Of a stretch of DNA of 64,000 nucleotides, positions 18,909 to 35,123 are shown one piece after another. Position 1 is the first letter of the stretch; every line of letters begins with the position of its first letter. The notes under the pieces are model-generated. The model was not told the DNA's origin. It made no database searches and saw only the letters and a list, made by a program, of their open reading frames with translations. This stretch comes from Dehalococcoidia bacterium (lineage in GTDB: Bacteria; Chloroflexota; Dehalococcoidia; Lucifugimonadales; CAJWER01): NCBI GenBank assembly GCA_963666125.1, contig OY762633.1, forward strand, positions 1,474,935-1,538,934, in the 5' to 3' direction. The position numbers and the translations under genes were made by a program.

Positions 18909-19173
18909 GGTTCATCCTCCCCCACGCGAGCAGGCCGTCCCTGCTCATGCGGCAATCGCGGCTGGTCGGTACAACGACCCGAAGTCACCCGTACTGTAGC
19001 GGAACAGCCGCCCGGTTTCAACGGATAATGTTGGGAATTTCCAATACCGGGCTTGAAATCGACCCCGTCGGTGAGCAATCCAAATTTCTGAACAAAGCCA
19101 AAACTTTGGATAGAACTTAGTTGACTATTTTTCCAAAGAGGGTCTAGCCTGTCATCATATGGAGGTTTTTCAT

Positions 19174-21432
19174 ATGGGAAAGATAAGGCGCTCGGCAATC
19201 CTCATACTCGTCCTGGCTCTCTTCGCGGGCACGCAGTGGGCCGCGGCCCAGGACGTCTCGGCAGACTCGGGCTTCTCGCGACCGATCACGACGATCGTGG
19301 TCGACGGCGTCTCGACGCGCTCGTCGGAGGCCGCGGCAGACCTCGCTATCTCCTTCGTGAGCCTGCTCGACACCATCCAGAGCGACGACCTGTTCATGCT
19401 GATGGTCACCGACGACGCCACGCACTTCGTCGGCCCCCATCGACCCTCGGACCCTGCCTACAACCAGGTGCGGGCGGACTTCGACGCCATCCTGAGATGG
19501 CCGGTCACCATCCGGTCGGACGACCTGGGGAAGGCGCTGGCCGAGACCTACGCGGCCATGATCGAGGAGCGAGCGAGCGAGGGGTCGAGCATCTACGTGC
19601 TGGTCGGGGACTCGCCTCACAACGACTTCGACAACCTCTCGGAGGGCGTCGGGCCCCTTGTCTCCAGGATGGCGGAGCAGGGCTGGAGCCTCAGCGGGGT
19701 CAGCCTGCCCGGCGCGTCCAGATCGGCAAAGAGCTTCCTGTGGGAGGCGTCCTCGGCTTCCGGAGGGCGCATGGTGGACCTGGCCACGTACGTGGGGCTC
19801 TCCGCCGCCGCCGACAAGGTGCTCGGCGAGCAGGCGCGCGGAATGCTGACCGAGGTCGGCAGCAGGACCCTCTCGCGCAACGAGATCATCAGCTCGGTCG
19901 TCAGCGTCGCGCCCGGCACGAGCAGCACGTCGATCCTCATCTTCAGGGACTCCCCCCAAGGCTCGTTCCAGCTCAGCGACCCGTCCGGCTACGCTATATC
20001 CGAGGAGCGCACCGATTACCGGGTCGTGGAGTCCCCCAACGCCGTCGTCTGGGAGATACGGGACCCGGCGCCCGGCCACTGGAAGGTGGACGGACAGGGC
20101 ATAATCGGCAGCGTTTCCGTGTGGAGCTACTCCAGCAACTCCTACAGGATCGCCCTGCAGAGCTCCGCGGCGCTGCCCCTGCGCGAGCCGTCCTCCTTGG
20201 TGGCCTACGTCGCCGAGAACGACCGGCTGGTCATGCTCGAAGACGCACGGATCATCGCACGGGTAACCACTCCCGACGGCGCGAGGATGAAGCTCGAGCT
20301 GCTCGACGACGGGACCGGGCCCGACCAGGTTGCGGGCGACGGCATCTACTCCACGCAGCTACAGCCCCTTTCCGCGGCCGGCGACTACGAGGTGGAGCTA
20401 GACCTCTCCTGGTCCGACTTCAACCACACCCTCACCTCTTTCGCCACCTTCAGCGCGGAGGCGTATCCAAGCGTCCTCGTGGACGGCATCGAGGTGAAGG
20501 ATCTGGCGCCCGGAGAGCGGACCCACGTCGCCGACGTACTGGTACACATCGACAACACGCCGTACTCGGTTCCCCAGGAAGCGCTGATCCCCATCGTGAA
20601 CGCGGCCCCGGGTTCGGAGGCCCAGGTGGAGATCGTGCCCAGGAGCATCTTCGGCAGCGGCCCGGCGTGGGAGTACGACGTATTCCTGACCGTCTCGGAG
20701 CCGGGCACGTACTCCGTCGCGCTGCAGCTCACGACCGAGTTCGGAGGCGCTACCTTCTCCAAGCTCTCCGAGATGATAGTGCTGCGATCCGGGGGCGCGG
20801 AAGCTCCGGTCGCCGCCCCGCCGGTCGAGAAGCCGGCCGTGGCGCAGCCCGCCATAGTGCAGCCTGTCGCGGCGCAGCCCGCTACGGTGCAGCCTGCCGC
20901 AGTGCAGCCCGTGGCCCCGGCCCAGGCGGCCGAGCCCATCGAGCCCGCGCCCGTGGACGCGATAGGGGAGCCCGCTTCCCTCTCGTGGCTCGGTCTGGTG
21001 ATCGTACCCCTGCTGACGATCGTGGGCGTGGGGATCTACTTCCTACTCCAGACGCGGCCCTACGGGTACATATACGGCGACAGGGAGGAGCGCCTCGTCG
21101 ACTTCTCGGCGCTCAGGCGCAATCCCCTCGCCGCCGTCTTCCGCCGGAGCCACGTCGATGGCTCGGAGCTCGACATACCGGGCCTCGAGAACGTGGCTTT
21201 CAGGTTCTCTGGCGAAGCCATACACGTCCAGAGGGGCAAGGGTGACGGGACGACGGTGCGCGTCAACAACCAGCCGCTGGTCGACCAGGCGGTCATCCAG
21301 GACAGGACGTGGATAGGCACGCGCGGTAAGCTCTACACCTTCCTGGCCCAGCCACCCGGCCTGCCCATGGAAGACGTCCCCGAAGAGGGCATACCCGACG
21401 GAGGCATCCCCGAGGGAGCGAGCGCGGACTGA
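19174..21432 (+). CDS. Single-pass membrane protein: signal peptide, VWA-like region, beta-rich extracellular domains, P-x-x-x-Q repeat linker, TM helix, cytoplasmic FHA-like domain
   Basis: The start was chosen at ATG 19174, 8 nt after GGAGG (19161-19165); the track ORF begins at 19159. The signal peptide is MGKIRRSAILILVLALFAGTQWAAAQ. The MIDAS-like segment is degenerate (VVDGVSTRS). A DDGTGPDQVAGDGIYS motif is present. The TM helix reads LSWLGLVIVPLLTIVGVGIYFLL. The C-terminal ~110 aa (VAFRFSGEAIHVQRG..TTVRVNNQPL) are FHA-like. The functional call is weak. Confidence 0.55.
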   Translation: MGKIRRSAILILVLALFAGTQWAAAQDVSADSGFSRPITTIVVDGVSTRSSEAAADLAISFVSLLDTIQSDDLFMLMVTDDATHFVGPHRPSDPAYNQVRADFDAILRWPVTIRSDDLGKALAETYAAMIEERASEGSSIYVLVGDSPHNDFDNLSEGVGPLVSRMAEQGWSLSGVSLPGASRSAKSFLWEASSASGGRMVDLATYVGLSAAADKVLGEQARGMLTEVGSRTLSRNEIISSVVSVAPGTSSTSILIFRDSPQGSFQLSDPSGYAISEERTDYRVVESPNAVVWEIRDPAPGHWKVDGQGIIGSVSVWSYSSNSYRIALQSSAALPLREPSSLVAYVAENDRLVMLEDARIIARVTTPDGARMKLELLDDGTGPDQVAGDGIYSTQLQPLSAAGDYEVELDLSWSDFNHTLTSFATFSAEAYPSVLVDGIEVKDLAPGERTHVADVLVHIDNTPYSVPQEALIPIVNAAPGSEAQVEIVPRSIFGSGPAWEYDVFLTVSEPGTYSVALQLTTEFGGATFSKLSEMIVLRSGGAEAPVAAPPVEKPAVAQPAIVQPVAAQPATVQPAAVQPVAPAQAAEPIEPAPVDAIGEPASLSWLGLVIVPLLTIVGVGIYFLLQTRPYGYIYGDREERLVDFSALRRNPLAAVFRRSHVDGSELDIPGLENVAFRFSGEAIHVQRGKGDGTTVRVNNQPLVDQAVIQDRTWIGTRGKLYTFLAQPPGLPMEDVPEEGIPDGGIPEGASAD
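20833..20925 (+). repeat. In-frame tandem 15-bp (5-aa) repeats encoding PAVAQ-PAIVQ-PVAAQ-PATVQ-PAAVQ-PVAPAQ
   Basis: Read directly as ccg gcc gtg gcg cag / ccc gcc ata gtg cag / cct gtc gcg gcg cag / ccc gct acg gtg cag / cct gcc gca gtg cag. The repeats sit just outside the TM helix. Confidence 0.8.
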
Positions 21433-23848: not shown

Positions 23849-24856
23849 CTACCGTCCACTCTGCCTCTTAATGCGTTCAATGGACTGCTGAATCTTTGTG
23901 ACCTCGTACAGGCACTTGTCCTGCTGTTCCGGGGACATTCGATCTAGGTCGGCCAAGAATTCCGGGACCTGCATTTCCCGCCTGAAACGTTTGAACCGAC
24001 GCAGCCACATATTGTCGACGCCACGGTCCTGTGCGCTCTCAAATGCCCTATCAAATGTCTTGTCACCAGATAAGAGTATCTTGGTCGGCTCCGGGCCCAC
24101 CTTGGCCGTATCAAGGAGTTTGACCAGCTTGTCTCTCACATCCGGCGAGCTTGGAATCTCCCCGCCCTTAATCTTCCTAACGACTACGTCATCGAGCTCC
24201 GGGTTTTCGCGACGAGCCTTCTTCACTATGTTGGACTTCAGGTACTCGAAGTAGTAGCTCCACCGTGTAACGCTGGTCTCATCGTGTTCAACCATGAACT
24301 TGTATGTGTCGATGAGCTGGTTCACCTTTCTCTCCGATAGTCCCATCTCGCTTGCCATACTCTGAGCACTGACCTCATGGGTGACGTTTCTGCGGTATAG
24401 GTAGCCCGCCTGTTCGTAGGGAGCCCAGTCCTTTCTGCCAATGATGTGGTACTCGCCTAGCAGGGCGAACACGAGCTTCTCGCTGATGTCGCCGGGGAGC
24501 AGCCGAACTTTGGCCTTGCCCCACGTCTTGAGGTCGTTTCTAGCAAGCTCGCGGTATGCGGCGAGTCGACTGTTTCCTTCAAGCACTACGAGATCGCCAT
24601 CCCTCACAAGCATGGGGTCTGTCAGTCCACCGTTTGCCCTGATTGACTGAAAGAGCTGCTTGACGTGGTCCGACCCTCTCAGTCTATTGAAGATCTCTTC
24701 CTGGGACGGTTCAACACCCGGCCTTTGAATTAGCGAATATATCCTTGGATTCTCCGGATAGAATTTGAGATCGTGAATCGGAAGATATCCGTTCCGGACC
24801 GGTATCTCCTGACCACCAAGCGTAAGAGTGTCGTTGACCCATGCAGAATCAGTCAT
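23849..24856 (-). CDS. ParB/Srx-fold N-terminal domain protein with predicted HTH (island gene 6)
   Basis: 335 aa. The core reads KFYPENPR..SIRANGGLTDPMLVRDGDLVVLEGNSRLAAYRELA. It is a paralog of 26782-27831. An AGGAGG SD lies 8 nt upstream of the ATG. Confidence 0.75.
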   Translation of the reverse strand: MTDSAWVNDTLTLGGQEIPVRNGYLPIHDLKFYPENPRIYSLIQRPGVEPSQEEIFNRLRGSDHVKQLFQSIRANGGLTDPMLVRDGDLVVLEGNSRLAAYRELARNDLKTWGKAKVRLLPGDISEKLVFALLGEYHIIGRKDWAPYEQAGYLYRRNVTHEVSAQSMASEMGLSERKVNQLIDTYKFMVEHDETSVTRWSYYFEYLKSNIVKKARRENPELDDVVVRKIKGGEIPSSPDVRDKLVKLLDTAKVGPEPTKILLSGDKTFDRAFESAQDRGVDNMWLRRFKRFRREMQVPEFLADLDRMSPEQQDKCLYEVTKIQQSIERIKRQSGR

Positions 24857-24877: not shown

Positions 24878-26347
24878 CTATGCATCCAATATGGCCCGCA
24901 GGATGTCCCCAAATTCGTAGGACATCTCCTTCTGGTATGTCTCCCTGTCGATGTCGCCCTGCGCGAGCTGCGCTGCGACCTGCTTGGAGTGAAGCAGCGC
25001 CTCAACCCATTCGTCTATCGAGTCACGCATAATCAGGTTGTGAACGTGGCAAACTCTGTCTTGGGATATCCGATGGATCCTGTCCTGTGCCTGCAGGTAG
25101 TCGTCCAAGCTGAACAGCCGGTCGTAGAAGATGACGTGGTTCGCTACGGTCAGAGTCAGCCCTTCCTTGGCGGAGCCTGGGGTGGCAATGAACACCTTTG
25201 CACTCGGCTCATCGATAAAGGTGCGAATCGCGTCGGTCTGCTCCCTAGTACTCAACAGTCCGTGGACTAGCTGAGGATTGTGTTGGCTCAGAATTCTTGC
25301 CAGCCACTCGACATTTTCAACGAACGACGTCCAGACTATGCATTTTTCACCATCTCTAACTATTGATGAGACCAGCTCAAGCAGGGTCTCCAGCTTCCCG
25401 GGCTCGACCCGGTAGCTCGCATCAATCAGGTTGGGATTCGACGTCACCTGTACCAACCTGAGCAGGCGCTTCAACACCAATTCCGACTCGTCGGCCATGA
25501 GTTGCCCATCCTGGAAGATGATAGCTCGCAGAGACTCCCTGACCTGCCTGTACAACTCCTGCTGCCGGGGCTCCCATTCGGTCACCAAAGAGTGGACAAC
25601 TTTGTCAGGAAGGCTTATCTCGGCGCTTGCCTTCGTCTCCCTTACGGCAAACCCCGATATCGAGTGGAATATGCGCTGTAACTGAATCTCCAAGGCTTTC
25701 TGCCGACTTTCAGCACCGGCTAAGTCGTTCGACAGGTTCACTGATCGTTTGAATTCCCCAAAATCATCTCCAAGCGACGCGCCGTCGTCAAGGAACTTGA
25801 TCTGCGACCAGATGTCGTGCGGGCGATTTGAAACTGGGGTCCCGGACATAATAACCCGCCTGGTGAACAGAGGCGCAAGATCGAGGAATGTCATGGTGAG
25901 AGCAGCGTCGGGGTTCTTGATCTTGGTTGACTCGTCCAGAATCACCCCGACATTCCTAGTCCTGAGAAATAGATGCATCCGCTCCTTCTCGGCTTTCACG
26001 GCCTCGTAGTGAGCAAGCATGACCCGGGCGGGACTATTGAAGACATAGAAGTTCCCACCACGGTTGTTGGTCAGGATTCGAGGAACGAGTTGAGAGTGAG
26101 AGGAAAGTTCCCTCTGCCAGTTGTCAAGGAGTCCCTTCTTAACAACTATCAGGGCAGTGTCCAATAGCTGGTGAGACAGCCAGTAAACAATGAGGTCTAT
26201 CGCAACCTTCGTCTTCCCCAACCCCTGTTCATGGAATATGGCGGCATACTCGAGATCCTTGACCGCATTGACAGCCTCCAGCTGGTATGCGAATGCCTCG
26301 TGCTTCAAGGTGAGGTCTGGCTCTCTCTTTAGTGTCAATTTCTGCAA
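24878..26347 (-). CDS. SNF2-family helicase/translocase (island gene 5)
   Basis: 489 aa with a TTG start. Motif I is EQGLGKTK, II is LDESTKIKN and III is MSGTPVSN. The C-terminal lobe reads GLTLTVANHVIFYDRLFSLDDYLQAQDRIHRISQ. Confidence 0.88.
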   Translation of the reverse strand: MQKLTLKREPDLTLKHEAFAYQLEAVNAVKDLEYAAIFHEQGLGKTKVAIDLIVYWLSHQLLDTALIVVKKGLLDNWQRELSSHSQLVPRILTNNRGGNFYVFNSPARVMLAHYEAVKAEKERMHLFLRTRNVGVILDESTKIKNPDAALTMTFLDLAPLFTRRVIMSGTPVSNRPHDIWSQIKFLDDGASLGDDFGEFKRSVNLSNDLAGAESRQKALEIQLQRIFHSISGFAVRETKASAEISLPDKVVHSLVTEWEPRQQELYRQVRESLRAIIFQDGQLMADESELVLKRLLRLVQVTSNPNLIDASYRVEPGKLETLLELVSSIVRDGEKCIVWTSFVENVEWLARILSQHNPQLVHGLLSTREQTDAIRTFIDEPSAKVFIATPGSAKEGLTLTVANHVIFYDRLFSLDDYLQAQDRIHRISQDRVCHVHNLIMRDSIDEWVEALLHSKQVAAQLAQGDIDRETYQKEMSYEFGDILRAILDA

Positions 26348-26351
26348 TGAG

Positions 26352-26789
26352 TCAACCTTCCTGATGTGGCTGTAACATCAGCCGATTCATTTCGGACAGA
26401 ACGACGATTTCAACGTGAAGCAATCCCTCTCTGGCCTGGAAGTTCGCGAGTCGTGCCCTAGCGAGTCTCTCAATAGGCCATGGCACCGCCAGTATGAAGG
26501 CCGAGCCTTCCGACATCCCACATCTTCTCAGGAATGCCATGATCTGAGCTTCGGTATGTGAGTTCTCCAGGTCCCTCATGCTCTTGGCTTCGCCGATGAC
26601 TACTCTTCCCTGTTCGTTGAGCATGACATAGGCGTCGGGCACATACCCTCCAATAGGCGGCGGGCGATTAGGCGATTCACCGCCAACGGAGTCGGTAAGG
26701 ACACGTTCCCTCCGACCTCCACAGAACCTATCCCCGATGTAGTTGTGAAGTATAGCAACCAAGTTTAAGTGTTCCTCTGATTCAGGCAC
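26352..26789 (-). CDS. PD-(D/E)xK nuclease-fold protein (island gene 4)
   Basis: 145 aa with a GTG start that overlaps the upstream stop by 8 nt. A helix-1 Glu lies in SEEHLNLV. The core VPDAYVMLNEQGRVVIGEAKS gives PD-x14-E-x-K. Confidence 0.6.
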   Translation of the reverse strand: MPESEEHLNLVAILHNYIGDRFCGGRRERVLTDSVGGESPNRPPPIGGYVPDAYVMLNEQGRVVIGEAKSMRDLENSHTEAQIMAFLRRCGMSEGSAFILAVPWPIERLARARLANFQAREGLLHVEIVVLSEMNRLMLQPHQEG

Positions 26790-27831
26790 TGGTTGAAGAG
26801 GGTGAGACGATGAGCTTGCAGAGTTGAGCCAACTGGTCCCTGGTCTCAGTCAGAGCGAGATTATCGGGAGTGTTCAGGTCTTCGCGAAGACGCAGGAGGT
26901 CTGTGTAGCTCATCTTTTCTATGTGGTCCAACAGCGCATTGGCGAGCTGGGTAAGTGTGGCGTCCTTCAGCGCCTCTACCGTGGAGGGAGTGTCCAGAAT
27001 CTTTTCTGCTTCACGTGCTCCATCAGTCAGGAATACGCTCCGCGCCTGCGGATTGGCGAGGATTGCAGGGAGCCTCCTGACACGGTCGAGTGGGTACAGA
27101 ATCTGGTCGTTAACCCACCCAGCGAAATCTGCCTTTGTGTATCCCGAGGTCACGAGAGCTTCCTGTACCCGTGGGGCTTGCATCTCAACAAAAGCACTGA
27201 ACCGCGTCGGGTCAAACTGGTCGTCACTGGCAAGGAGTGGCCGGTAATGGTTCTCCATGTCGTTGTAGGCGTCGATGAATCGGTGCACCTCGGCCTTCTG
27301 CCCTCCGCAGAAATCAACGATCTGATCAGTTGTCAGGTGCTCGGAGTTGCTGAGATAGTCCAAGTACTTTGCCTTCGAGTATGGGTCCCACTGTCTTGGG
27401 CCGACCAGATGGGCCTGTAGCCGAATGGCATCGATCTCCTTTTCATCAAGCCGTTCGTACACGATTGCCGGGATTTCGTCCCATCTATCACTATCATCGT
27501 CGCTCCTCCTGAACTGGCGATAGATCAGGGCACGGGTGTTTCCCTCGATGACGACAAGCCTGTCTTCGTCCTCTCTGTTGACCAAGATGGGATGGATTAC
27601 ACCTCCATGGGTCCTGATTGATGCCCTCAGACTCTGGAATGTGGTCGTGCTCTCACCCTGCTCATAATTGGCGGCGCCAAGAGCCAGACTCATCTGATCA
27701 TCGGTCACTTCGCCGCCGTACATCTCAATGTAGCGCGCCACCCGGGGATTGGACGTATCAAGCACAAGCGTTTCGACCGGAAGCATCATGAATTGACCGT
27801 TTCTTGCAGCCATATTGTTTCTCTCCATCAA
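26782..27831 (-). CDS. ParB/Srx-fold N-terminal domain protein with predicted HTH (island gene 3)
   Basis: 349 aa. The start is TTG 27831 or ATG 27828, immediately after the upstream TAG. The core reads LDTSNPR..SIRTHGGVIHPILVNREDEDRLVVIEGNTRALIYRQF. Confidence 0.75.
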   Translation of the reverse strand: MMERNNMAARNGQFMMLPVETLVLDTSNPRVARYIEMYGGEVTDDQMSLALGAANYEQGESTTTFQSLRASIRTHGGVIHPILVNREDEDRLVVIEGNTRALIYRQFRRSDDDSDRWDEIPAIVYERLDEKEIDAIRLQAHLVGPRQWDPYSKAKYLDYLSNSEHLTTDQIVDFCGGQKAEVHRFIDAYNDMENHYRPLLASDDQFDPTRFSAFVEMQAPRVQEALVTSGYTKADFAGWVNDQILYPLDRVRRLPAILANPQARSVFLTDGAREAEKILDTPSTVEALKDATLTQLANALLDHIEKMSYTDLLRLREDLNTPDNLALTETRDQLAQLCKLIVSPSSTSA

Positions 27832-29370
27832 CTAGTCTGAATTTATATCTGAACTATTTTGCCCGACCCTGGAGGCTTCTGCGAACACTAATTCAATCAA
27901 CCCCATTGCGGAGCTCGGTGAGGGCGAGAGAGTCGCCAAAGCTCCAAATACCCTCTGATACACAACGACCTCTGAGGGAGTCATTTTATCGAACCTATGC
28001 AGCTCTGTATCAACTGAAAAGTTGTTAAGTTCTCCCTCCACATTACTGAGCCTCTCAAGAGTGCCGTTATCGAGACTATCCTTACCGATGCTCTTGCGAA
28101 GTTCCTTGATTTCCCGCAATGCCTCTTTGACCAACCCGTCCGAGTCCTCTGCAGTGAGATAACCGGACGTTGCCAAAGCACAGATGTCCTCAACGTTGCA
28201 CAGTGATGAGAGAGCCTTCCTGGCACGGTTACGAGCCATGGACTCCCGTCTACACCGCGTACTTATATTGCGTAGCACGGGGGTCAGTTGGTTTTCGAGA
28301 TTCCGCAGATGGGGGCCAGGTTCAAAGTAGTCACGTCTGGCGTTGGGAATGATCCGTGAGTCCAGGACATGCAACTCTCCCACACACCATCGATTGAACC
28401 GTTCCTCTGTAAAGAGGTCGTCGAACACCGCCTCACCACCAATCTGTATGTTCCCAACCCTGGCCTTGATGCCACGCACTCGCTGTTCTTTTGGGATCGC
28501 GCCCAAGTAGGGCGAGTGTGCGATCCAACCAACGGCCGCTTCACCATTGTGGTCGACGCTTGGTATATGAACCATCTGGAAATCCGTAAAATCAGCCTCC
28601 TTATTTACCGAGAGCCAGATTGATTTCCCATATGGTCTCTCTATCGGATCTGGATCTCCTTCCAGCAGCACTTCCAACGTGAGAGGTGCCTCAGTGCCAT
28701 CGAATAGCCCTTCGACTTCCTTGGCAAATGGGAACCCGGAACTCAAGGGCACTGGACACACTTCGCCGATATAGTCGCGGACCGCGTCACGATTGAGCAG
28801 CAGTCCCGCGGAGTGACGCGCCACATCTCCGACTTCGACCTCGAAGAAGTGCTCAGGATAATCCGAAGCTGGCAGGGTTTCCACATTGACGCAGTCAAGA
28901 ATGGCCTCCTCGAGCTCCGACTCGGTGGAGGTCAGTTCGGGAAGCCGATCGCTATGCCATGTGATTCGGGTTACCGCCTGGTTCTCGCTGGCTCGTGTTG
29001 TGAATGAGACTGTCTTTGCGAAGGCAAGCCCGGCCAGCCGTCCAACGCCACGGAAGCCCCTATCGATTCCCAATGTCTTGTCACTGCGGCCAATGGGCAA
29101 CAGCCGCCCAAGCGCTTCCTCGCGAGACAGACCAGGGCCGTGGTCTCGAATCCTGATCCGGCGCTCAGTGACATCGATAGCGATATCCACTCTTGCTCTT
29201 CCGGGTAACCCGCTCCCCGCGACTGCGTCTGCCGCATTCTGTATGTACTCCCTGTACATGGACAGCGGAGCATCGTACATCCCTGTTGTCACAAGCCCGA
29301 GTAGTCCCGCACCCGAGAGCGCTGGGGTGTTCTGGGTGACAGGCGCCAACTCAGTCACGTCTGCGCTCAT
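27832..29370 (-). CDS. GHKL (Bergerat-fold, HATPase_c_3/MORC-like) ATPase (island gene 2)
   Basis: 512 aa. The N-box is YREYIQNAADA, G1 is IRDHGPGLS and G2 is DRGFRGVGRLAGLAF. Its start overlaps the radical SAM stop (ATGA at 29367-29370). Confidence 0.8.
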   Translation of the reverse strand: MSADVTELAPVTQNTPALSGAGLLGLVTTGMYDAPLSMYREYIQNAADAVAGSGLPGRARVDIAIDVTERRIRIRDHGPGLSREEALGRLLPIGRSDKTLGIDRGFRGVGRLAGLAFAKTVSFTTRASENQAVTRITWHSDRLPELTSTESELEEAILDCVNVETLPASDYPEHFFEVEVGDVARHSAGLLLNRDAVRDYIGEVCPVPLSSGFPFAKEVEGLFDGTEAPLTLEVLLEGDPDPIERPYGKSIWLSVNKEADFTDFQMVHIPSVDHNGEAAVGWIAHSPYLGAIPKEQRVRGIKARVGNIQIGGEAVFDDLFTEERFNRWCVGELHVLDSRIIPNARRDYFEPGPHLRNLENQLTPVLRNISTRCRRESMARNRARKALSSLCNVEDICALATSGYLTAEDSDGLVKEALREIKELRKSIGKDSLDNGTLERLSNVEGELNNFSVDTELHRFDKMTPSEVVVYQRVFGALATLSPSPSSAMGLIELVFAEASRVGQNSSDINSD

Positions 29371-31010
29371 ACGATCTGCGTCCCCTTGACTGCGAGTGCT
29401 TCATCGTGATCGAAGAGTCCAGCATCTTCAACGACTTCGTCCTCCTCAAGGTAGGTGCCACTCCCGGTCATTTTCTCCATGAGCTGGCGACCGTTCGTCT
29501 TCGCGTCCTGTCTGGTGTCCAGTCCATGGAATGCCATCAACTGTCGTATCTGGTGGTCGATCGTTTGGTCATTCGCCAACTCCCGGAAATGTTTCGGGCC
29601 CATTCCATTCCCGTTGGATGGATTGGCCAGTAGATGCACGAACTCATTCTCCTGAGACTCTGAAAGGCTCCTGCGAAGCGACTCGTACTCCTCCCTTTGG
29701 GCTCGCCCTTCCCCATCCTCAAAATACTCTCGATGGAATATGAAGGCGTGCGGCAGCCTGAGCAGCCGCTCAAACTCCTCGGCGTTTTCTCCATAGGCTC
29801 TCAGGAAGAAGGACGGGCTGCCGCTCACAACTCCCCTAGTTGCCTGGAGCATAATTTGGAACGAACGGAGGTAGTATCGGTTCCATTTCTTGCCCACGTG
29901 TGACCGATCCTTCAATGTCACGGGCTGGTAGCGCATTGGGAAGGACCAGATACGGACCCCAAGCTCTTCATTAAGGTCGATGTTGAGATGCATTCTCTGG
30001 TAGAGGTCTGACGGAGTGTCCATAAAGTTATACAGCATGTAATTCGACAGGGAGGTGATCTGGTTGTCCGCCGCCATGCGAATTGACTTCTCATAGACCT
30101 TCCTGACACCGATGTGATCGAAAGCGACTCGCAGCGGGCTGATGCAGATGGTGGACATTTCACGTAGGAACATATCCGACTTGGCGAGGATTCGTGCATC
30201 CACCCCCTGGTTGAAGTCCACCCGCCGCTTGACCGATCTGTTACCATCGCGAGTTAGCTTGGCTCCGGGCGTAAAGCCCAGATCGCGAATCTCGGCAATC
30301 ACCTCCCTGTAACGCGTTGACGCCGTGATGTTGTTGTCCATGAGCACGAGGTCCTTCTTCTCCCCATGCCTTTCAGTCACCCTTTCAACCAGATTGGTAA
30401 GGGGTGGCATCTCTCGCTGCGCACCCTCCAGCTTCGGCACCCCACAGAAAGAGCACTTCCTCACACATCCACGAGATGCGTAGCCGAAGTAGGCATCATG
30501 GACAGGGTAACGGTAGTCGATATGTTCGAGGATGCTATAGTCGGGAACCAGTTCCTCGATCGGCGTGCCGGCTAGGTCGTCAGCGCCAAACTCATATTCG
30601 TCTGCCGACAGGGCTAGAGACGCTGCGGGAGGGCCATCGAGCAGACCCTTGATGAAACGTACCCCGGCCCATCTGGGTACGTTTAGGAAAGCGTCGTGCA
30701 TGAGCGAGACTGCGATGCCGCCGACAAAGACGCGCTCCCGTTGATCGTGTGCCGCACGTATGGCGAAATCGATAGCCGAGGCTGTGCGCTTCCACTCGAA
30801 AGTGAAGAGTGTGGTGACATACACTCGGTCCCATGCTTGCTCCAACGCTTCCTTGTCTTCGCCCTTCATGAAGGTGACGCGGTCTCCTCGACCAAATGAG
30901 CCGTGATAAGCGGCGAGCTTCATCAGACCCAACGGCGGATACTTGTTGGGGTAGCTAGGCTCGATAAGTAGGATATTCCTCATAGCACCAGGGACACAAC
31001 AAGCCACCAT
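29367..31010 (-). CDS. Radical SAM enzyme with N-terminal B12-binding-type domain (island gene 1)
   Basis: 547 aa; an alternative start is the Met of MRNILLIEPS at 30983. The Rossmann-like N-terminus reads ILLIEPSYPNKYPPLGLMKLAAY. The cluster motif is GYASRGCVRKCSFCGVP (CxxxCxxC). A ~150-aa acidic C-terminal extension has no motif I recognise. Confidence 0.8.
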   Translation of the reverse strand: MVACCVPGAMRNILLIEPSYPNKYPPLGLMKLAAYHGSFGRGDRVTFMKGEDKEALEQAWDRVYVTTLFTFEWKRTASAIDFAIRAAHDQRERVFVGGIAVSLMHDAFLNVPRWAGVRFIKGLLDGPPAASLALSADEYEFGADDLAGTPIEELVPDYSILEHIDYRYPVHDAYFGYASRGCVRKCSFCGVPKLEGAQREMPPLTNLVERVTERHGEKKDLVLMDNNITASTRYREVIAEIRDLGFTPGAKLTRDGNRSVKRRVDFNQGVDARILAKSDMFLREMSTICISPLRVAFDHIGVRKVYEKSIRMAADNQITSLSNYMLYNFMDTPSDLYQRMHLNIDLNEELGVRIWSFPMRYQPVTLKDRSHVGKKWNRYYLRSFQIMLQATRGVVSGSPSFFLRAYGENAEEFERLLRLPHAFIFHREYFEDGEGRAQREEYESLRRSLSESQENEFVHLLANPSNGNGMGPKHFRELANDQTIDHQIRQLMAFHGLDTRQDAKTNGRQLMEKMTGSGTYLEEDEVVEDAGLFDHDEALAVKGTQIV

Positions 31011-31028: not shown

Positions 31029-31058
31029 ATTGTACGCCAACGGACGGACGGCTGCCAA
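31029..31058 (-). promoter_or_regulatory. Candidate sigma70-type promoter of the island operon
   Basis: The minus strand reads TTGGCA (31058-31053), an 18-nt spacer, then TACAAT (31034-31029). It lies 19 nt upstream of the ORF start at 31010. Confidence 0.4.
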
Positions 31059-31118: not shown

Positions 31119-33137
31119 TCAGTTGGCGGTGCTCTTCGCCGTCCCCTCTTCCGCGTACCGGCGGAAGCGCCCCAGGGCCATCAGCGGCCAGTAGTTCCTG
31201 TAGAGGTCGTACCTGATCATGAACCCGGCGGGTAGCTCGCTCCCCTGCTGCCGTACCTTGTCGACCCGCTGCCCCACGCCGTAGCCCGGGAATCCCGTGC
31301 CCGTGAACCAACGCTCGCTCCACGTCCCGTCCTGCCGCTGGGTGCCCGCCAGGTAGCGAATGCCGCGCTCGACGGTCGGGTGCTCCCACTCCCCGGCGGC
31401 CATAAGCGCGAGCAGCGCCCACGCGGTCTGCGACGCGGTGCTGCCGGCCCCCCGGCCCGCCAGCATCCGGTCGGCATAGCTGGCGCAGCTCTCCCCCCAG
31501 CCGCCGTCCTCGTTCTGGTGGGCCGCCAGCCAGTCCACGGCCCGGCGCACCGGCTCCCCCGTCATGTCCTGTCCCATCGCTTCCAGCGCAGGGAGCACGG
31601 CGCCGGTGCCGTATATGTAGTTGACGCCCCAGCGGCCGAACCAGGGGCCGTCCGGCTCCTGCTCGCCCAGCAGGTACTCCACCGCCCGGTGCAGTGGGTA
31701 CGCGTCCGTCGGGTAGCCGATGCGCGCGAGGGACTCCACCACGTGGGCAGTCACGTCCGCGCTGGGGGGATCGATCATCTCGCCGAAGTCGGCGAAGGGC
31801 ATCTCGGCCACAGCCCGCCGGGTGTTGTCCTTGTCGAAGGCCGCCCAGCCGCCGTTCTTGCTCTGGACACCGAGCATCCACTCGGCCCCGCGCCCGATCG
31901 CCTCCTCCTGCCTGCCGGCGTCCTCCAGCCGCACCCGCCTCAGGGCTATCAGCACCTCCGCCGTGTCGTCGATGTCCGGGTACGTCCTGTTGGCGAACTC
32001 GAAGGCCCAGCCCCCGGGCGGCGTGTTCTTCGCCTTGACCTGCCAGTCCCCTCCGTCGGAGACCTGCGCCCTCATGAGCCATTCGCCCGCCCGTCGCAGG
32101 ACCGGGCTGTCGGGGGCGAGGCCGGAGTCCTCCAGGGCGATCATCGCCAGGCACGTGTCCCAGACGGGAGACACGCAGGCCTGGACGCGCATGGAGTCGT
32201 TCTCCTCGATGACGAAGCCCTTGAACCCCTCGACGCCCTTCCGCATGGCGGGGTGATCGACCCCATATCCCAGGACCTTCAGGGCGATGAGCGAGTAGAC
32301 CCAGGGGGGCTGTATGCCGCCCCATGAGCCGTCGTCCTCCTGGTGGTCGACTATCCACTTGACGGCCTTGCGGATGGCGGTCTCCCGCAGCGGGTGCCAC
32401 GGGAGGGAGTTGTACCACCGGAACAGCCGGTCGGCCAGCCGGAAGAATCCCGCCATGCCCGTCAGGCCCCCGATTCCCACCCTGTCGGCGTGTCCGCTCG
32501 CTCCGTTCGGTACGAGCTCGGGAATGGCGGCGCCGATCGGGACCGGGCATACCGGCCTCCGCGAGAGCACGATGCTCAGGGGCAGCATGGTGCCCCTGGC
32601 CCAGCTCGAAAAGTCGTACAGGTTCATGGGCACCCACGGCGGGAGCAGCACCATCTCCGGCGGGAGCGCGGGCACGGCCTTCCAGCTCCACTGCCCGAAG
32701 AGGGCGAGCCATATCTTGGTGAAGACCCGTGTCCGCGGGATGCCGCCCCTGGACAGGATGAACTCGCGCGCCCTCGCCATACGGGGATCGTCGGGGGAAG
32801 CTCCCGCCAGCTTCAGGGCAAAGTAGCACTCGACGGTCGTGCTGAGGTCGCCGGGGGAGCCGTAATACTGCCCCCACGTGCCGTCCTCCCGCTGGGTCTT
32901 GAACAGGTGGTTCGACAGCTTCCTCCACGTATCGCCGTCTCCGATGCCCAGGAAGTGGGTCAGCAGGAGGTACTCGGCCTCCATCGTGGAGTTGGACTCC
33001 AGCTCGCCCCACCAGTAGCCCTCGGGGGCCTGGGTGCGTATGAAGTAGTCCAGGGAGCGGGCCACCGCCTCCGCAACCGCGTCCCTCAACCCCTGGTGAG
33101 CGGACGGCGCCCGGGCCTCTCGAACCTGCTGCTTCAC
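31119..33137 (-). CDS. shc: Squalene-hopene cyclase
   Basis: The track ORF 31119-33281 is trimmed to the GTG at 33137, which overlaps the hpnG stop (GTGA). The catalytic DxDD motif is in YPDIDDTAEVLIAL. There are multiple QW-type repeats (e.g. QNEDGGWGE, QREDGTWGQYYG). Confidence 0.93.
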   Translation of the reverse strand: MKQQVREARAPSAHQGLRDAVAEAVARSLDYFIRTQAPEGYWWGELESNSTMEAEYLLLTHFLGIGDGDTWRKLSNHLFKTQREDGTWGQYYGSPGDLSTTVECYFALKLAGASPDDPRMARAREFILSRGGIPRTRVFTKIWLALFGQWSWKAVPALPPEMVLLPPWVPMNLYDFSSWARGTMLPLSIVLSRRPVCPVPIGAAIPELVPNGASGHADRVGIGGLTGMAGFFRLADRLFRWYNSLPWHPLRETAIRKAVKWIVDHQEDDGSWGGIQPPWVYSLIALKVLGYGVDHPAMRKGVEGFKGFVIEENDSMRVQACVSPVWDTCLAMIALEDSGLAPDSPVLRRAGEWLMRAQVSDGGDWQVKAKNTPPGGWAFEFANRTYPDIDDTAEVLIALRRVRLEDAGRQEEAIGRGAEWMLGVQSKNGGWAAFDKDNTRRAVAEMPFADFGEMIDPPSADVTAHVVESLARIGYPTDAYPLHRAVEYLLGEQEPDGPWFGRWGVNYIYGTGAVLPALEAMGQDMTGEPVRRAVDWLAAHQNEDGGWGESCASYADRMLAGRGAGSTASQTAWALLALMAAGEWEHPTVERGIRYLAGTQRQDGTWSERWFTGTGFPGYGVGQRVDKVRQQGSELPAGFMIRYDLYRNYWPLMALGRFRRYAEEGTAKSTAN

Positions 33138-33961
33138 CAAGTGGCCACCCTCGTACGGGAGCTCGCGAAGCCCACGACGAAGGCGGTCAGTGAGTCCCGC
33201 GCCGCCGAGGCAGCGCCGCCGAGCCGGACCGCCGCCGGAATCGACCAGGGCCGGAGGATGACCGGCAGCACGTGCCGCCACCGGCTCCCAAGCCCTGAGT
33301 CCAGGGCGAACGAGGCGACGAAGCCCGGCAGCGGACGCTCCACGGGGTCCACGATGGAGCGCACGGCGAGGAACGGCACGTCTCTCTCACGGCAGGCCGC
33401 GCCTATCCAGAAGCTCTCCTCTTCCACTGCCAGGGCACCGGTCCTGAGCCCCAGGCGCCTCTTCTCGTCGGGATCCGATACGATATGGGAGGCCGTCACG
33501 CAGGCCCCTGCCTCGTGGCGCAGTCCCAGCCCCGCAAGCACCCGCAGCGCCTCGTCAGCCAGCCTCCCGTCCGTCCGTAGGGGCGGACCCACGTGTCCGC
33601 CCTCCCCCGCGTGGCCGCCGTCCGCGGGCGTCAGGGTACGGGCGACGACCAGGTCTCCCACGCGCTGGCCGTCAACCAGCCCGCCGGCGAAGCCGAGGGA
33701 CAGCACGGCGTCGGGGCGGCGCTCCTCCAGGACCTCGCGGACCGCCGCCTCGGCCCGGGCCCGGCCCACGCCGCTCACGGCAAGCACTGCCTCCACGCCG
33801 CCGACCCGGCCATCGTATGCCGCCTGGGACGCGGACGGCGCGACCCTCCGCCAGTGACCCGCCTCGAGGACTCCCCGGGCCTCATCCTGCAGCGCAACGA
33901 CCAGGGCCAAGTACCCTCCCACCCGTCTAGCTGGCTCCGACCCTGGCGCGATTGCCGGCAA
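33134..33961 (-). CDS. hpnG: Hopanoid-associated phosphorylase/nucleosidase (HpnG-like, PNP_UDP_1 fold)
   Basis: 275 aa as the maximal ORF. A GTG at 33922 (VGGYLALVV) would remove the 35-nt overlap with hpnH. Nucleosidase-type segments are present: LAVSGVGRARAE, LSLGFAGGL, AVEEESFWIGAA..VPFLAVRSIVD. Confidence 0.8.
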   Translation of the reverse strand: MPAIAPGSEPARRVGGYLALVVALQDEARGVLEAGHWRRVAPSASQAAYDGRVGGVEAVLAVSGVGRARAEAAVREVLEERRPDAVLSLGFAGGLVDGQRVGDLVVARTLTPADGGHAGEGGHVGPPLRTDGRLADEALRVLAGLGLRHEAGACVTASHIVSDPDEKRRLGLRTGALAVEEESFWIGAACRERDVPFLAVRSIVDPVERPLPGFVASFALDSGLGSRWRHVLPVILRPWSIPAAVRLGGAASAARDSLTAFVVGFASSRTRVATW

Positions 33962-35123
33962 GCCCCCTCACCAGGGACGCCGCGCCCCTGGGGCTGCCGA
34001 ATGCCTCGTACACCGTCGCAGACTCGAACCCGCAGTGCATCATGCAGTTGGCGCACTTGCCGTTCACACCCACGCCGTATCTCTCCCAGAGGGCGGGGCT
34101 GAACAGGTCGTCCACGTTCTCCGTATGCCTGTCCGCCAGCGGATAGCACGGCTCCCGCCAGCCCTGGACCGTGTAGGTGGGGTTGGACCAGGCGGTGCAC
34201 TGGTAGTCGCGCTCTCCCCGCAGGAAGCGGAGGTAGAGCGGGTTGTTGTAGAAGCGGATGCGCTCCATCGCCTCGTCGGTGAGCACGCGCTTGAAGACCT
34301 CGATCGACTCCTTCCGCGACAGGAACATCTCCTGCACCGGCCCATCGACGAAGTCGTACCCGGCCGAGACCATCACGCCCTCGAAGCCCATGTCCGTCAC
34401 GAGGGTGAATAGCTGGTGCAGGTCCTCGGCGTCGGACCCCCTGAAGAGGGTCGTGTTGGAGCAGACCCTGTAGCCGGACTCGAGCGCCAGCTTGGAGGCG
34501 GCCATCGCCTTCTTCCAGACGCCCTTGCGGTTGACGGCGACGTCGTGCCGGGCCTCCATCCCGTCCAGGTGGACGACCCAGGCCAAGTACTTGGAGGGCG
34601 GGACCCGTTTCATGGTGCGCTCCAGCAGGAGTCCGTTGGTGCAGCAGTAGACGAATATCTTCCGCCGGACAAGCTCTTCGATCAGCTCCGGCAGCTGCTT
34701 GTACATGGTCGGCTCGCCGCCGGCTATGGACACTATGGGTGCGCCGGAGTCCTCCACGGCCTTCAGGCACTGGTCGAGGGTGAGGGTCTTGGTGATGACG
34801 GGCAGGTACTCGCGTATGCGCCCGCAGCCGTAGCAGTCGAGGTTGCAGGCCTCCAGGGGTTCGAGCATGGTCACCAGCGGGAAGCGCTCGCGGCGGCGGA
34901 TGAACTTTTGCCCCACGACGTGGAAGAAGGTCCTGAAGGCCAGCTCGACGGGCCGCCTTGCGCCCGCTCCGCCCTCGGGCCGGTAGACGGGCAGCGCCTG
35001 CTCCGCAGTCTCCATCGCCTCGCGCACCTCGCGCTTCGGGGCCGCTTCCGTGATCACCATGGCCGCGCCTCGCTTCCTGATAGTTGGCACAGTATAGTAA
35101 TCCAGTCGCACCGCTTCGTCCAC
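33927..35123 (-). CDS. hpnH: Adenosylhopane synthase, radical SAM (HpnH)
   Basis: 398 aa; the start may be the Met at 35060. The cluster motif is LEACNLDCYGCGRI. The C-terminal Cys-rich DUF3463-type tail reads CTAWSNPTYTVQGWREPCY..GKCANCMMHCGFE. Confidence 0.88.
   Translation of the reverse strand: MDEAVRLDYYTVPTIRKRGAAMVITEAAPKREVREAMETAEQALPVYRPEGGAGARRPVELAFRTFFHVVGQKFIRRRERFPLVTMLEPLEACNLDCYGCGRIREYLPVITKTLTLDQCLKAVEDSGAPIVSIAGGEPTMYKQLPELIEELVRRKIFVYCCTNGLLLERTMKRVPPSKYLAWVVHLDGMEARHDVAVNRKGVWKKAMAASKLALESGYRVCSNTTLFRGSDAEDLHQLFTLVTDMGFEGVMVSAGYDFVDGPVQEMFLSRKESIEVFKRVLTDEAMERIRFYNNPLYLRFLRGERDYQCTAWSNPTYTVQGWREPCYPLADRHTENVDDLFSPALWERYGVGVNGKCANCMMHCGFESATVYEAFGSPRGAASLVRGLAGNRARVGAS

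Follow-up and report, generated by a model that had tools for sequence, protein, structure and literature searches.

A radical SAM enzyme and its GHKL partner as the candidate core of a mobile, DNA-directed defence system

In the genome of a Dehalococcoidia bacterium (Chloroflexota; Lucifugimonadales; CAJWER01), a gene on the minus strand at 29367..31010 of the stretch analysed here encodes a 547-residue radical S-adenosylmethionine (SAM) enzyme, hereafter rSAM. The stretch, which we call the window, comprises 64,000 nucleotides (nt) of contig OY762633.1 (assembly GCA_963666125.1, positions 1,474,935 to 1,538,934 of the forward strand), and positions within it are numbered from its first letter. 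Our tentative proposal is that rSAM may well be the catalytic core of a mobile, DNA-directed defence system in which it marks DNA. The enzyme looks like the chemical core of such a system, and not like a metabolic enzyme, because it almost always travels on mobile islands with a GHKL ATPase, with ParB- and DndB-like proteins and with helicase-nuclease pairs. In the window it stands at the head of a six-gene, same-strand island of ~7 kb (~23.85-31.0 kb). As an initial annotation of this DNA had proposed, it is the only candidate modifying enzyme of the island. No other gene there goes further in its chemistry than NTP hydrolysis and nucleolysis, the remaining five encoding the GHKL ATPase, two ParB/Srx-superfamily proteins, a PD-(D/E)xK nuclease candidate and an SNF2-family helicase/translocase. 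All accessory modules of the system and its relatives are DNA-directed, which supports a DNA-directed system. We infer a DNA substrate, a reaction that would modify rather than damage the DNA, possible cobalamin use and an antiviral function.

The radical SAM enzyme and its family

The 547-amino acid (aa) open reading frame (ORF) reported initially is real and lies on the minus strand, where it opens with ATG; the plus-strand translation of 29367..31010 is riddled with stops. Its true start may be M10 (ATG, nt 30983), giving a protein of 538 aa, because most homologs are 540 aa long and align from residue 10-11. At E<=1e-3, one database gave 6657 homologs, of which the top 120 have identities of 82-90%. 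An exhaustive search of another gave 1663 clusters (50% identity), 272 with E<=1e-30. Because of these numbers, the feature is far beyond chance.

The protein has both defining features of the radical SAM superfamily, a CX3CX2C motif and a partial TIM-barrel core. The motif, previously noted as a CxxxCxxC core, is CVRKCSFC (aa 182-189; 30444..30467, minus strand), the sole CX3CX2C of rSAM. Its [4Fe-4S]/SAM cysteines, C182, C186 and C189, are invariant across 54 homologs of 31-91% identity. The alignment of these homologs contains 16 invariant columns, namely the three cysteines and 13 others (F69, G97, G181, V191, N227, G245, D265, G269, R294, D298, D331, P358 and W376, in 547-aa numbering, which is the numbering of alignment A1 plus 9). 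The remaining cysteines of rSAM are C4, C5 and C289, and the enzyme has no auxiliary cluster, because no cysteine is conserved outside the CX3CX2C motif.

An AlphaFold2 (AF2) model built from the 54-member alignment (pLDDT 86.7, pTM 0.85) predicted a Rossmann-like N-domain, a poorly ordered linker, a radical SAM barrel, an all-helical C-domain and a disordered tail of 31 residues. The N-domain (aa ~10-125; 30636..30983, minus strand) was modelled as alternating strands and helices at pLDDT >90. Secondary structure in the model delimits the partial TIM-barrel core (aa ~170-365; 29916..30503, minus strand), which carries the invariant N227, D265, G269, R294, D298, D331 and P358. The helical C-terminal domain (aa ~378-515; 29466..29879, minus strand; AF2 helices 369-506 in model numbering) has no Pfam match; in other families a TRAM or SPASM domain takes its place.

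Foldseek searches against the PDB ranked MiaB, MtaB, TsrM, OxsB, CysS, TokK and RimO highest, and all top matches were radical SAM enzymes (E = 1e-8 to 1e-5, TM-scores 0.38-0.45, identities 12-16%). The matches to TsrM, OxsB, TokK, CysS and MiaB spanned both the N-domain and the barrel, and MiaB and RimO scored equally well. Given this ranking and the low identities and TM-scores, the two-domain class is right but the family distinct. PDB searches with the rSAM sequence and with a profile gave matches confined to the region of the cluster motif. Like the class B radical SAM enzymes (TsrM, OxsB, TokK, CysS, QCMT) and MiaB/RimO, rSAM joins an N-terminal Rossmann-like domain to a radical SAM barrel; unlike them, it has no cysteine triad, no Pfam B12-binding match and an unrelated helical C-domain. 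The N-terminal cysteine triad and the TRAM domain that define the MiaB/RimO/MtaB methylthiotransferases are both absent, and the methylthiotransferase models score rSAM at 19.2 bits against a cutoff of 357 (TIGR01125) and at 16.1 against 251 (TIGR00089).

The initial annotation had described the N-domain as being of the B12-binding type. The Rossmann-like fold is borne out by the AF2 model and by Foldseek, but the Pfam B12-binding domain has no match in rSAM at E<=0.01. By eye, T66-T67-L68 and G97-G98, 28 residues apart, fit one half of the classical B12 motif, SxL-(26-28)-GG, and the DxHxxG of that motif is absent from rSAM. The TxL-28-GG pattern is conserved in the alignment. Within the N-domain, F69 and G97 are invariant, G98 is at least 90% conserved and no cysteine is conserved. 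As modelled, the domain may or may not hold cobalamin; radical SAM enzymes that bear a Rossmann domain and do not bind cobalamin exist (review, PMC12931638).

No curated family claims rSAM, as none reaches its cutoff in Pfam, NCBIfam or PADLOC. Pfam Radical_SAM (PF04055) scores it at 22.8 bits, under the gathering score of 29.5 (relatives reach 35-37 bits), and its best NCBIfam matches lie at 15-20 bits vs cutoffs of 250-775. Ten distant representatives gave the same picture: none exceeded any NCBIfam cutoff, and only some exceeded the generic radical SAM Pfam model. Larger relatives are of two kinds. In those of 620-690 aa, the N-domain and the barrel are enlarged by insertions of 60-130 aa, and those of ~800 aa (P0142, P0150, P0156, P0182 and P0194) have a C-terminal extension of 260-280 aa with no Pfam match. 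This extension was considered as a fused GHKL domain and rejected, since it has no similarity to one.

Linkage of rSAM to the GHKL ATPase

The GHKL ATPase (512 aa; 27832..29370, minus strand; Pfam HATPase_c_3, 34.7 bits) is encoded next to rSAM. As the initial annotation had noted, the rSAM stop overlaps the GHKL start; the junction reads GTATGAGC, with ATGA shared by the two genes in an arrangement of translational coupling. All Bergerat motifs of the GHKL protein are invariant (E41/N45/D48, D76xGxG80, G105..G110). Its AF2 model (pLDDT 80.6) matched the N-terminal and middle domains of Hsp90/GRP94/TRAP1 and the MORC4 ATPase in Foldseek, and because the model runs on into long C-terminal helices, the protein resembles a dimeric ATP-driven clamp.

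To determine linkage, we scanned one genome per species, which returned 80 loci, all in metagenome-assembled genomes (MAGs) and with rSAM identities of 64-91%. A GHKL gene follows rSAM in 79 of these 80 loci. In 72 of the 79, start and stop overlap or the gap is <=30 nt, a count based on heuristic ORF calls with the most upstream start codon taken as the start, so that large overlaps are artefacts. The divergences of the two proteins are correlated (rho 0.90, over loci that are phylogenetically non-independent). Among 72,556 plasmids, the 12 with a close rSAM homolog are the same 12 that have the GHKL gene, and the 7 plasmids with the SNF2 gene are a subset of these 12. This co-occurrence in loci and plasmids argues that rSAM and GHKL form an obligate unit and that the helicase module depends on the pair. 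Median identity was 69% for rSAM, 49% for GHKL and 31-50% for the remaining components, rSAM being the most conserved. The initial annotation had held that membership of a known metabolic family, with homologs never linked to the neighbouring genes, would speak against a role in the island. What we found is that no known metabolic family claims rSAM and that the neighbours are linked to it in 79/80 genomes and in 12/12 plasmids.

The long acidic C-terminal extension described at the outset is present: the last 107 aa of rSAM contain 20 D/E vs 10 K/R, and the net charge of the last 60 aa ranges from -3 to -12 across 83 rSAM homologs. Its final part, aa 517-547 (29370..29462, minus strand), is predicted to be disordered, with AF2 pLDDT <50 over the last 31 residues. 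Within this otherwise variable tail lies a near-invariant short linear motif, VEDAGLF (aa 527-533; 29412..29432, minus strand). The form [VI]EDA[GAD]L, in most cases with F or Y as the next residue, occurs in 83/83 rSAM sequences, drawn from sponge-type MAGs and from rhizobial and sphingomonad plasmids, and the heptad is absent from more distant rSAM relatives. Judged by this pattern of conservation, the peptide looks like a docking motif. The obvious candidate binder would be GHKL, because it is the only universal partner. A physical, stoichiometric rSAM-GHKL complex, possibly formed via the VEDAGLF peptide, is plausible.

Accessory modules and mobile context

The remaining four genes of the island all lie on the minus strand. 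ParB/Srx-superfamily protein 1 (349 aa; 26782..27831) has an EGNTR box and protein 2 (335 aa; 23849..24856) an EGNSR box, both read straight from the sequence. Protein 1 scores 20.9 bits on Pfam ParB_N, below cutoff, and matches PADLOC PDC-M38A (1.2e-10) and ParB-like families in PHROG. Protein 2 scores 20.8 bits on TIGR00180, also below cutoff, matches PDC-M38A (3.4e-8) and is 44.6% identical to a Mesorhizobium plasmid 'ParB N-terminal domain-containing protein'; in most relatives of the island it is placed directly upstream of rSAM. The SNF2-family helicase/translocase (489 aa; 24878..26347) scores 95.6 bits on Pfam SNF2-rel_dom and 56 bits on Helicase_C. It matches phrog_62 and, in its helicase parts only, PADLOC ZorD (4.7e-45) and DpdE (2.5e-35). 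The fourth protein (145 aa; 26352..26789) had no match in the hidden Markov model libraries scanned (Pfam, PADLOC, NCBIfam and PHROG). Its conserved residue signature, H7, D33, P51-D52, E67-x-K69 and Q82, is invariant in 45 homologs of 28-82% identity, and it is probably a member of a small, unannotated family of PD-(D/E)xK nucleases. In PADLOC-DB v2, the core of rSAM and GHKL was unmatched, and only generic helicase and ParB parts found models (ZorD/DpdE, PDC-M38A and PD-Lambda-5_A).

The GC content of the island, 0.53-0.55, is ~13 points lower than that of the surrounding DNA (0.63-0.71). It is flanked by the squalene-hopene cyclase gene shc (31119-33281, minus strand) and by a histidine kinase gene. 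A promoter-like sequence, TTGGCA-18-TACAAT (31029..31058, minus strand), lies just 5' of the rSAM start, within the 108-nt gap between shc and rSAM; it is a consensus match only, with 10 of 12 positions matching in a consensus scan. Terminators within the island were fewer than expected by chance. A search of its flanks for direct repeats or att-like sites found only short, probably chance matches, and in the window, as in most MAG loci, the island is a bare chromosomal islet in which we saw no integrase, conjugation or phage genes.

Across the 80 loci, the rSAM-GHKL pair occurs with exchangeable sets of partners, and no architecture includes a methyltransferase. Architecture A, which is that of the window, has ParB-nuclease-SNF2-ParB up- or downstream of rSAM-GHKL (about 52/80 loci). 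In architecture B (15/80), the genes u439, u571 and a second GHKL gene (GHKL2) lie upstream of the pair, as in L046 (5366-13163) and L050 (5600-13136). Architecture C (8/80) has a large (~770 aa) DndB/DGQHR protein. Two loci (2/80) add a PIN-like and GHKL pair to another architecture. The u571 protein is HerA-like, matching PDB HerA 7f6d at E=7e-30, with faint similarity to PADLOC HerA (E about 0.01). By itself, u439 gave no Pfam or PDB match, and it was identified as NurA-like only via homology to Marinitoga camini virus 1. In this virus, the annotated HerA is a homolog of u571 and the annotated Rad50/Mre11-associated exonuclease a homolog of u439, and between the HerA and NurA-type exonuclease genes lies an rSAM relative of 30% identity. 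Architecture B, with L084 (454-8314) and L083 (6001-9827) as further loci of this kind, is seen again at 26-40% identity in IMG/VR contigs and on a 32%-GC human-gut contig, MT836743, where the 505-aa product of the gene after rSAM matched none of the sequences compared.

Outside the MAGs, the rSAM-GHKL system was found on conjugative plasmids beside typical plasmid accessory genes, and the hosts of plasmids with the family include Novosphingobium aromaticivorans, Rhizobium leguminosarum and Mesorhizobium. In Mesorhizobium and Novosphingobium, the gene directly upstream of rSAM on the conjugative plasmids encodes a DGQHR protein, and the PIN-like and GHKL pair is also present. The DGQHR proteins of pNL1, a plasmid of N. 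aromaticivorans DSM 12444, exceed the Pfam DndB (PF14072) cutoff, the large one giving in addition a weak HEPN match at its C-terminus, and its PIN-like protein scores 86 bits on PIN_8. In two divergent proteins of ~800 aa, P0214 and P0401, rSAM is joined to a DGQHR domain. The fusion is real and not an assembly artefact, because the two proteins are only 48% identical over 98% of their length. Stand-alone fusions of this kind lie in defence islands (L164, 929-3337; L166, 1019-3394), one adjoining AbiEi/AbiEii and the other an Eco57I-type gene, a resolvase and SLATT plus ThsB_TIR. Neither has a nuclease or GHKL neighbour.

Viral sequences also contain relatives of rSAM, 522 of them in IMG/VR contigs. 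Phage relatives of ~300 aa (~305 aa) form phrog_9298 (E=2.8e-39) and sit in early/replication regions (L167, 4989-5906; L123, L141, L148 and L161). In Phocaeicola phage PV4-TP1, a PAPS-reductase gene precedes the relative, which also has the split ORFs of a DNA adenine methyltransferase close by. In several IMG/VR contigs, such a relative is encoded directly beside an SNF2-like helicase.

The distribution of the cassette suggests horizontal transfer. The MAGs belong to at least 11 phyla, yet their rSAM proteins are 64-91% identical, with 83% reached in a member of the Spirochaetia and 86% in one of the Acidimicrobiia. Several MAG names are those of symbionts of marine sponges (Ca. Poribacteria, Ca. 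Spongiihabitans thiooxidans and Ca. Poriferihabitaceae). By their names, most of the MAG records would be of sponge origin. As far as sequence identity can tell, the cassette seems to have spread recently between phyla inside one type of community, and such high conservation in sponge-type MAGs suggests a mobile immune module shared by that community.

Proposed mechanism, alternatives and known systems

Taken together, these observations fit into one reading only, a DNA-directed conflict system in which rSAM-GHKL is the constant core. In the mechanism that we propose, rSAM would cleave SAM at its single [4Fe-4S] cluster and would work as a unit with the co-translated GHKL clamp, which is of the Hsp90/MORC/MutL type. 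NTPases of the ParB/DndB fold would then bring rSAM-GHKL to DNA; these are separate proteins in the window, the upstream DGQHR protein on plasmids and a fused domain in some relatives. Radical chemistry would take place on the DNA, the most likely outcome being a covalent mark that distinguishes self from foreign. Finally, swappable translocase-nuclease modules would attack DNA without, or with, the mark. The candidate modules are SNF2 with the PD-(D/E)xK protein (as in the window), the HerA-like with the NurA-like protein, PIN_8 with a second GHKL, and a DndB protein whose C-terminus is weakly HEPN-like. In plasmids the SNF2/nuclease module is never found without the core, which fits a toxic restriction module that needs its modifier.

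A more specific version of this proposal is possible, and we put it forward with some doubt. The rSAM-GHKL pair might be the modification half of the first radical-SAM-based system resembling restriction-modification (R-M). Its unknown covalent DNA mark might arise by cobalamin-dependent C-methylation or be another radical adduct on base or sugar. The pair would be loaded by ParB/DndB-fold NTPases, its mark would be read by alternative translocase-nuclease modules, and the system would have been swept through marine sponge symbionts by horizontal transfer.

Several observations weigh against a DNA-marking defence role. No feature of rSAM sequence or structure pinpoints the substrate, and rSAM contains no recognisable DNA-binding domain. 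Its best structural neighbours, MiaB and RimO, act on RNA or protein, at the low TM-scores given above (0.38-0.45). The lone DGQHR-rSAM fusions fit an effector or orphan modifier better than a classical R-M pair, and the possible HEPN and PIN_8 partners are often RNases, which would follow an abortive-infection logic. PADLOC (2023) has no model for rSAM or GHKL and hence offers no prior evidence for defence. In favour of a defence role, at least 12 of the 134 immediate neighbours of the 80 loci match PADLOC defence families (PDC-S01, type II restriction endonuclease, AbiEii, CBASS cyclase and effector, MkoB, SoFic and PDC-S04); this is a raw count with no matched control.

It is possible, but rather unlikely, that the system serves defence with rSAM as the weapon and not the marker, acting once ParB/GHKL have sensed foreign DNA. 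It might damage DNA by hydrogen abstraction (strand breaks or cross-links), produce a viperin-like antiviral nucleotide analogue or deplete SAM. Nuclease-less DGQHR-rSAM fusions in defence islands are what a self-sufficient sensor-effector would be expected to leave, and the weapon would also be the most conserved component. Viperin is a precedent for antiviral radical SAM chemistry, and the viperin parallel drawn in the initial annotation holds as a precedent but not as a relationship: rSAM shows no sequence-family relation to viperins, with no match to them among its NCBIfam hits or in PADLOC, and the architecture differs, viperins being single genes without a Rossmann N-domain. A second precedent is Ophion (bioRxiv 10.1101/2025.09.30.679545), whose radical SAM protein is partnered with PHP and PRTase proteins. 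If the present system is antiviral, it would share with both the use of radical SAM chemistry in anti-phage defence. A second weapon would, however, be redundant in most versions, which already have dedicated nucleases, and the strict dependence of the SNF2/nuclease module on rSAM-GHKL in plasmids is the pattern of a restriction module that needs a protective modifier.

We consider it unlikely that the cassette instead serves the plasmids, integrative and conjugative elements or prophages that carry it, by hypermodifying their own DNA against restriction or by excluding competitors. Its location on conjugative plasmids among typical accessory genes is consistent with such a selfish role, as are the 522 IMG/VR relatives, the phage family phrog_9298, the PV4-TP1 relative among DNA methyltransferase and PAPS-reductase genes, and the phrog_62 match of SNF2. 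ParB domains are frequent in plasmid and phage conflict proteins (PMC5512222). Against this role, the islets in the window and in most MAG loci are bare of mobility genes and of convincing flanking repeats, defence genes are often neighbours, and a nuclease and a translocase would be superfluous for simple self-protection.

Protein-directed chemistry is still less probable. Here rSAM would modify its GHKL or ParB-like partner, the Hsp90-like GHKL being chaperone or client. The very tight coupling to a single partner, the Hsp90-family chaperones as best structural matches of GHKL, the action of the structural neighbour RimO on a protein and the conserved docking-type peptide in the rSAM tail would all agree with it. 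To our knowledge, such rSAM-GHKL chemistry has no precedent. Moreover, MORC and MutL are equally good GHKL analogues, DGQHR fusions occur without a GHKL neighbour, and all other linked genes are DNA-directed.

The gene neighbourhood of the island concerns hopanoids. In addition to shc, the window contains hpnH at 33927-35123(-) (TIGR03470, 380 bits vs cutoff 225). An hpnG-like phosphorylase ORF at 33134-33961(-) scores 115.5 bits on TIGR03468, below the cutoff of 187. As called, this ORF overlaps the 5' end of the long shc ORF by ~150 nt, so shc probably begins at a start codon downstream of the one that opens its longest ORF. The class-B-like architecture of rSAM is also that of hopanoid methylases. 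In agreement with the initial annotation, rSAM has no significant similarity to the HpnH of the window (blastp E=0.59). The HpnJ model scores rSAM at 14.9 bits vs a cutoff of 577.6, and HpnP and HpnR models are not among its NCBIfam matches. In the 80 related loci, shc, hpnH and the histidine kinase are all missing from the surroundings, so that the hopanoid neighbourhood of the island is coincidental. A hopanoid link of rSAM was rejected on the lack of a family match, the lack of synteny elsewhere and the foreign GC content.

Ordinary metabolism, with rSAM as a hopanoid methylase (HpnP/HpnR/HpnJ-like), a tRNA/rRNA methylthiotransferase or a maturase of RiPPs (peptides made by the ribosome and altered after translation) or other natural products of a sponge symbiont, is strongly disfavoured and very improbable: the position 108 nt downstream of shc, near hpnH and the hpnG-like gene, and MiaB and RimO as best folds favour it, against which stand the low HpnJ and RimO/MiaB scores (the latter 16-19 bits vs 251-357), hopanoid synteny in 0/80 loci, the ~13-point drop in GC, the lack of auxiliary-cluster cysteines and of a TRAM or SPASM domain, and linked genes that are DNA-directed and include no precursor-peptide or biosynthetic genes.

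The DNA-marking defence role can be compared with known systems. In Dpd, modification of DNA by DpdA depends on DpdB, a DGQHR protein and ATPase (PMC10164549); the engagement of DNA by ParB/DndB-fold NTPases proposed above follows this analogy. The island resembles Dpd in combining a putative DNA-modifying enzyme with an ATPase of the DGQHR/ParB fold and in having SNF2-type helicases in the restriction part, and both are mobile islands. It differs in that it lacks the DpdA enzyme, which is like tRNA-guanine transglycosylase (TGT), as well as the preQ0 pathway and DpdC, its putative modifier being a radical SAM enzyme paired with GHKL. The similarity of the island SNF2 to DpdE covers the helicase core only (NCBIfam DpdE, 33 bits vs cutoff 500), and DGQHR proteins were found only in relatives of the island and not in the island itself.

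In Dnd, DndB accompanies the modification machinery, and the modification and restriction modules are decoupled and shuffled (PMC10853773). Similar to Dnd/Ssp, the present system has an Fe-S enzyme, an ATPase core, ParB-superfamily proteins in the manner of DndB and separate nuclease modules, and relatives of the island carry true DndB-family proteins (PF14072 above cutoff). In contrast to Dnd/Ssp, neither the island nor any of the related loci examined contains DndA, C, D or E or SspA-D, and the island ATPase is GHKL and not ABC/SMC-like. DndC, for its part, is a PP-loop protein outside the radical SAM superfamily (PMC10853773).

Prokaryotic MORC/paraMORC proteins, in which GHKL is combined with an S5-like transducer, are linked to SNF2 helicases and restriction-fold nucleases in laterally transferred operons (Iyer, Abhiman & Aravind 2008, PMC2292703). 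The island is similar in its invariant GHKL motifs, in the MORC4/Hsp90-like fold of that protein and in having SNF2 and PD-(D/E)xK in the same operon. Those operons differ in using ordinary DNA methyltransferases, and radical SAM enzymes are unmentioned in PMC2292703. Architecture B resembles SIR2-HerA/DUF4297-HerA and the 'HerA/FtsK capture systems' (PMC10853773) in pairing rSAM-GHKL with a HerA-like ATPase and a NurA-like protein; it differs in its partners, with two GHKL ATPases and a radical SAM enzyme in place of SIR2 or DUF4297. The island SNF2 weakly matches HmaA (1.9e-11), and the island GHKL is without a PADLOC match. PADLOC 'Hma' is a system of the helicase-methylase-ATPase type. Overall, the system would operate in the manner of Dpd, Dnd and MORC-type R-M operons but belongs to none of these groups. 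We found no description of a system of rSAM, GHKL, ParB/DGQHR and SNF2/HerA in open-access papers and bioRxiv.

Should DNA prove to be the substrate of rSAM, the known routes by which bacteria mark or attack DNA (methyltransfer, phosphorothioation and deazaguanine exchange) would be extended by radical SAM chemistry, and a new DNA modification could emerge. The family is large and has cultured, tractable plasmid hosts, hence the question can be tested directly. Even a mundane function would leave a clean, unannotated protein family defined together with its obligate partner.

Two further proteins are encoded elsewhere in the window. One, of 1791 aa (40368-45743(+)), combines a metzincin-like part with leucine-rich-repeat regions that resemble XopAE, XopAC and XopL, which are type III effectors; its repeats are of a eukaryote-like type that is frequent in host-associated bacteria. 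The other, of 757 aa (19159-21432(+)), has a 'choice-of-anchor X' domain.

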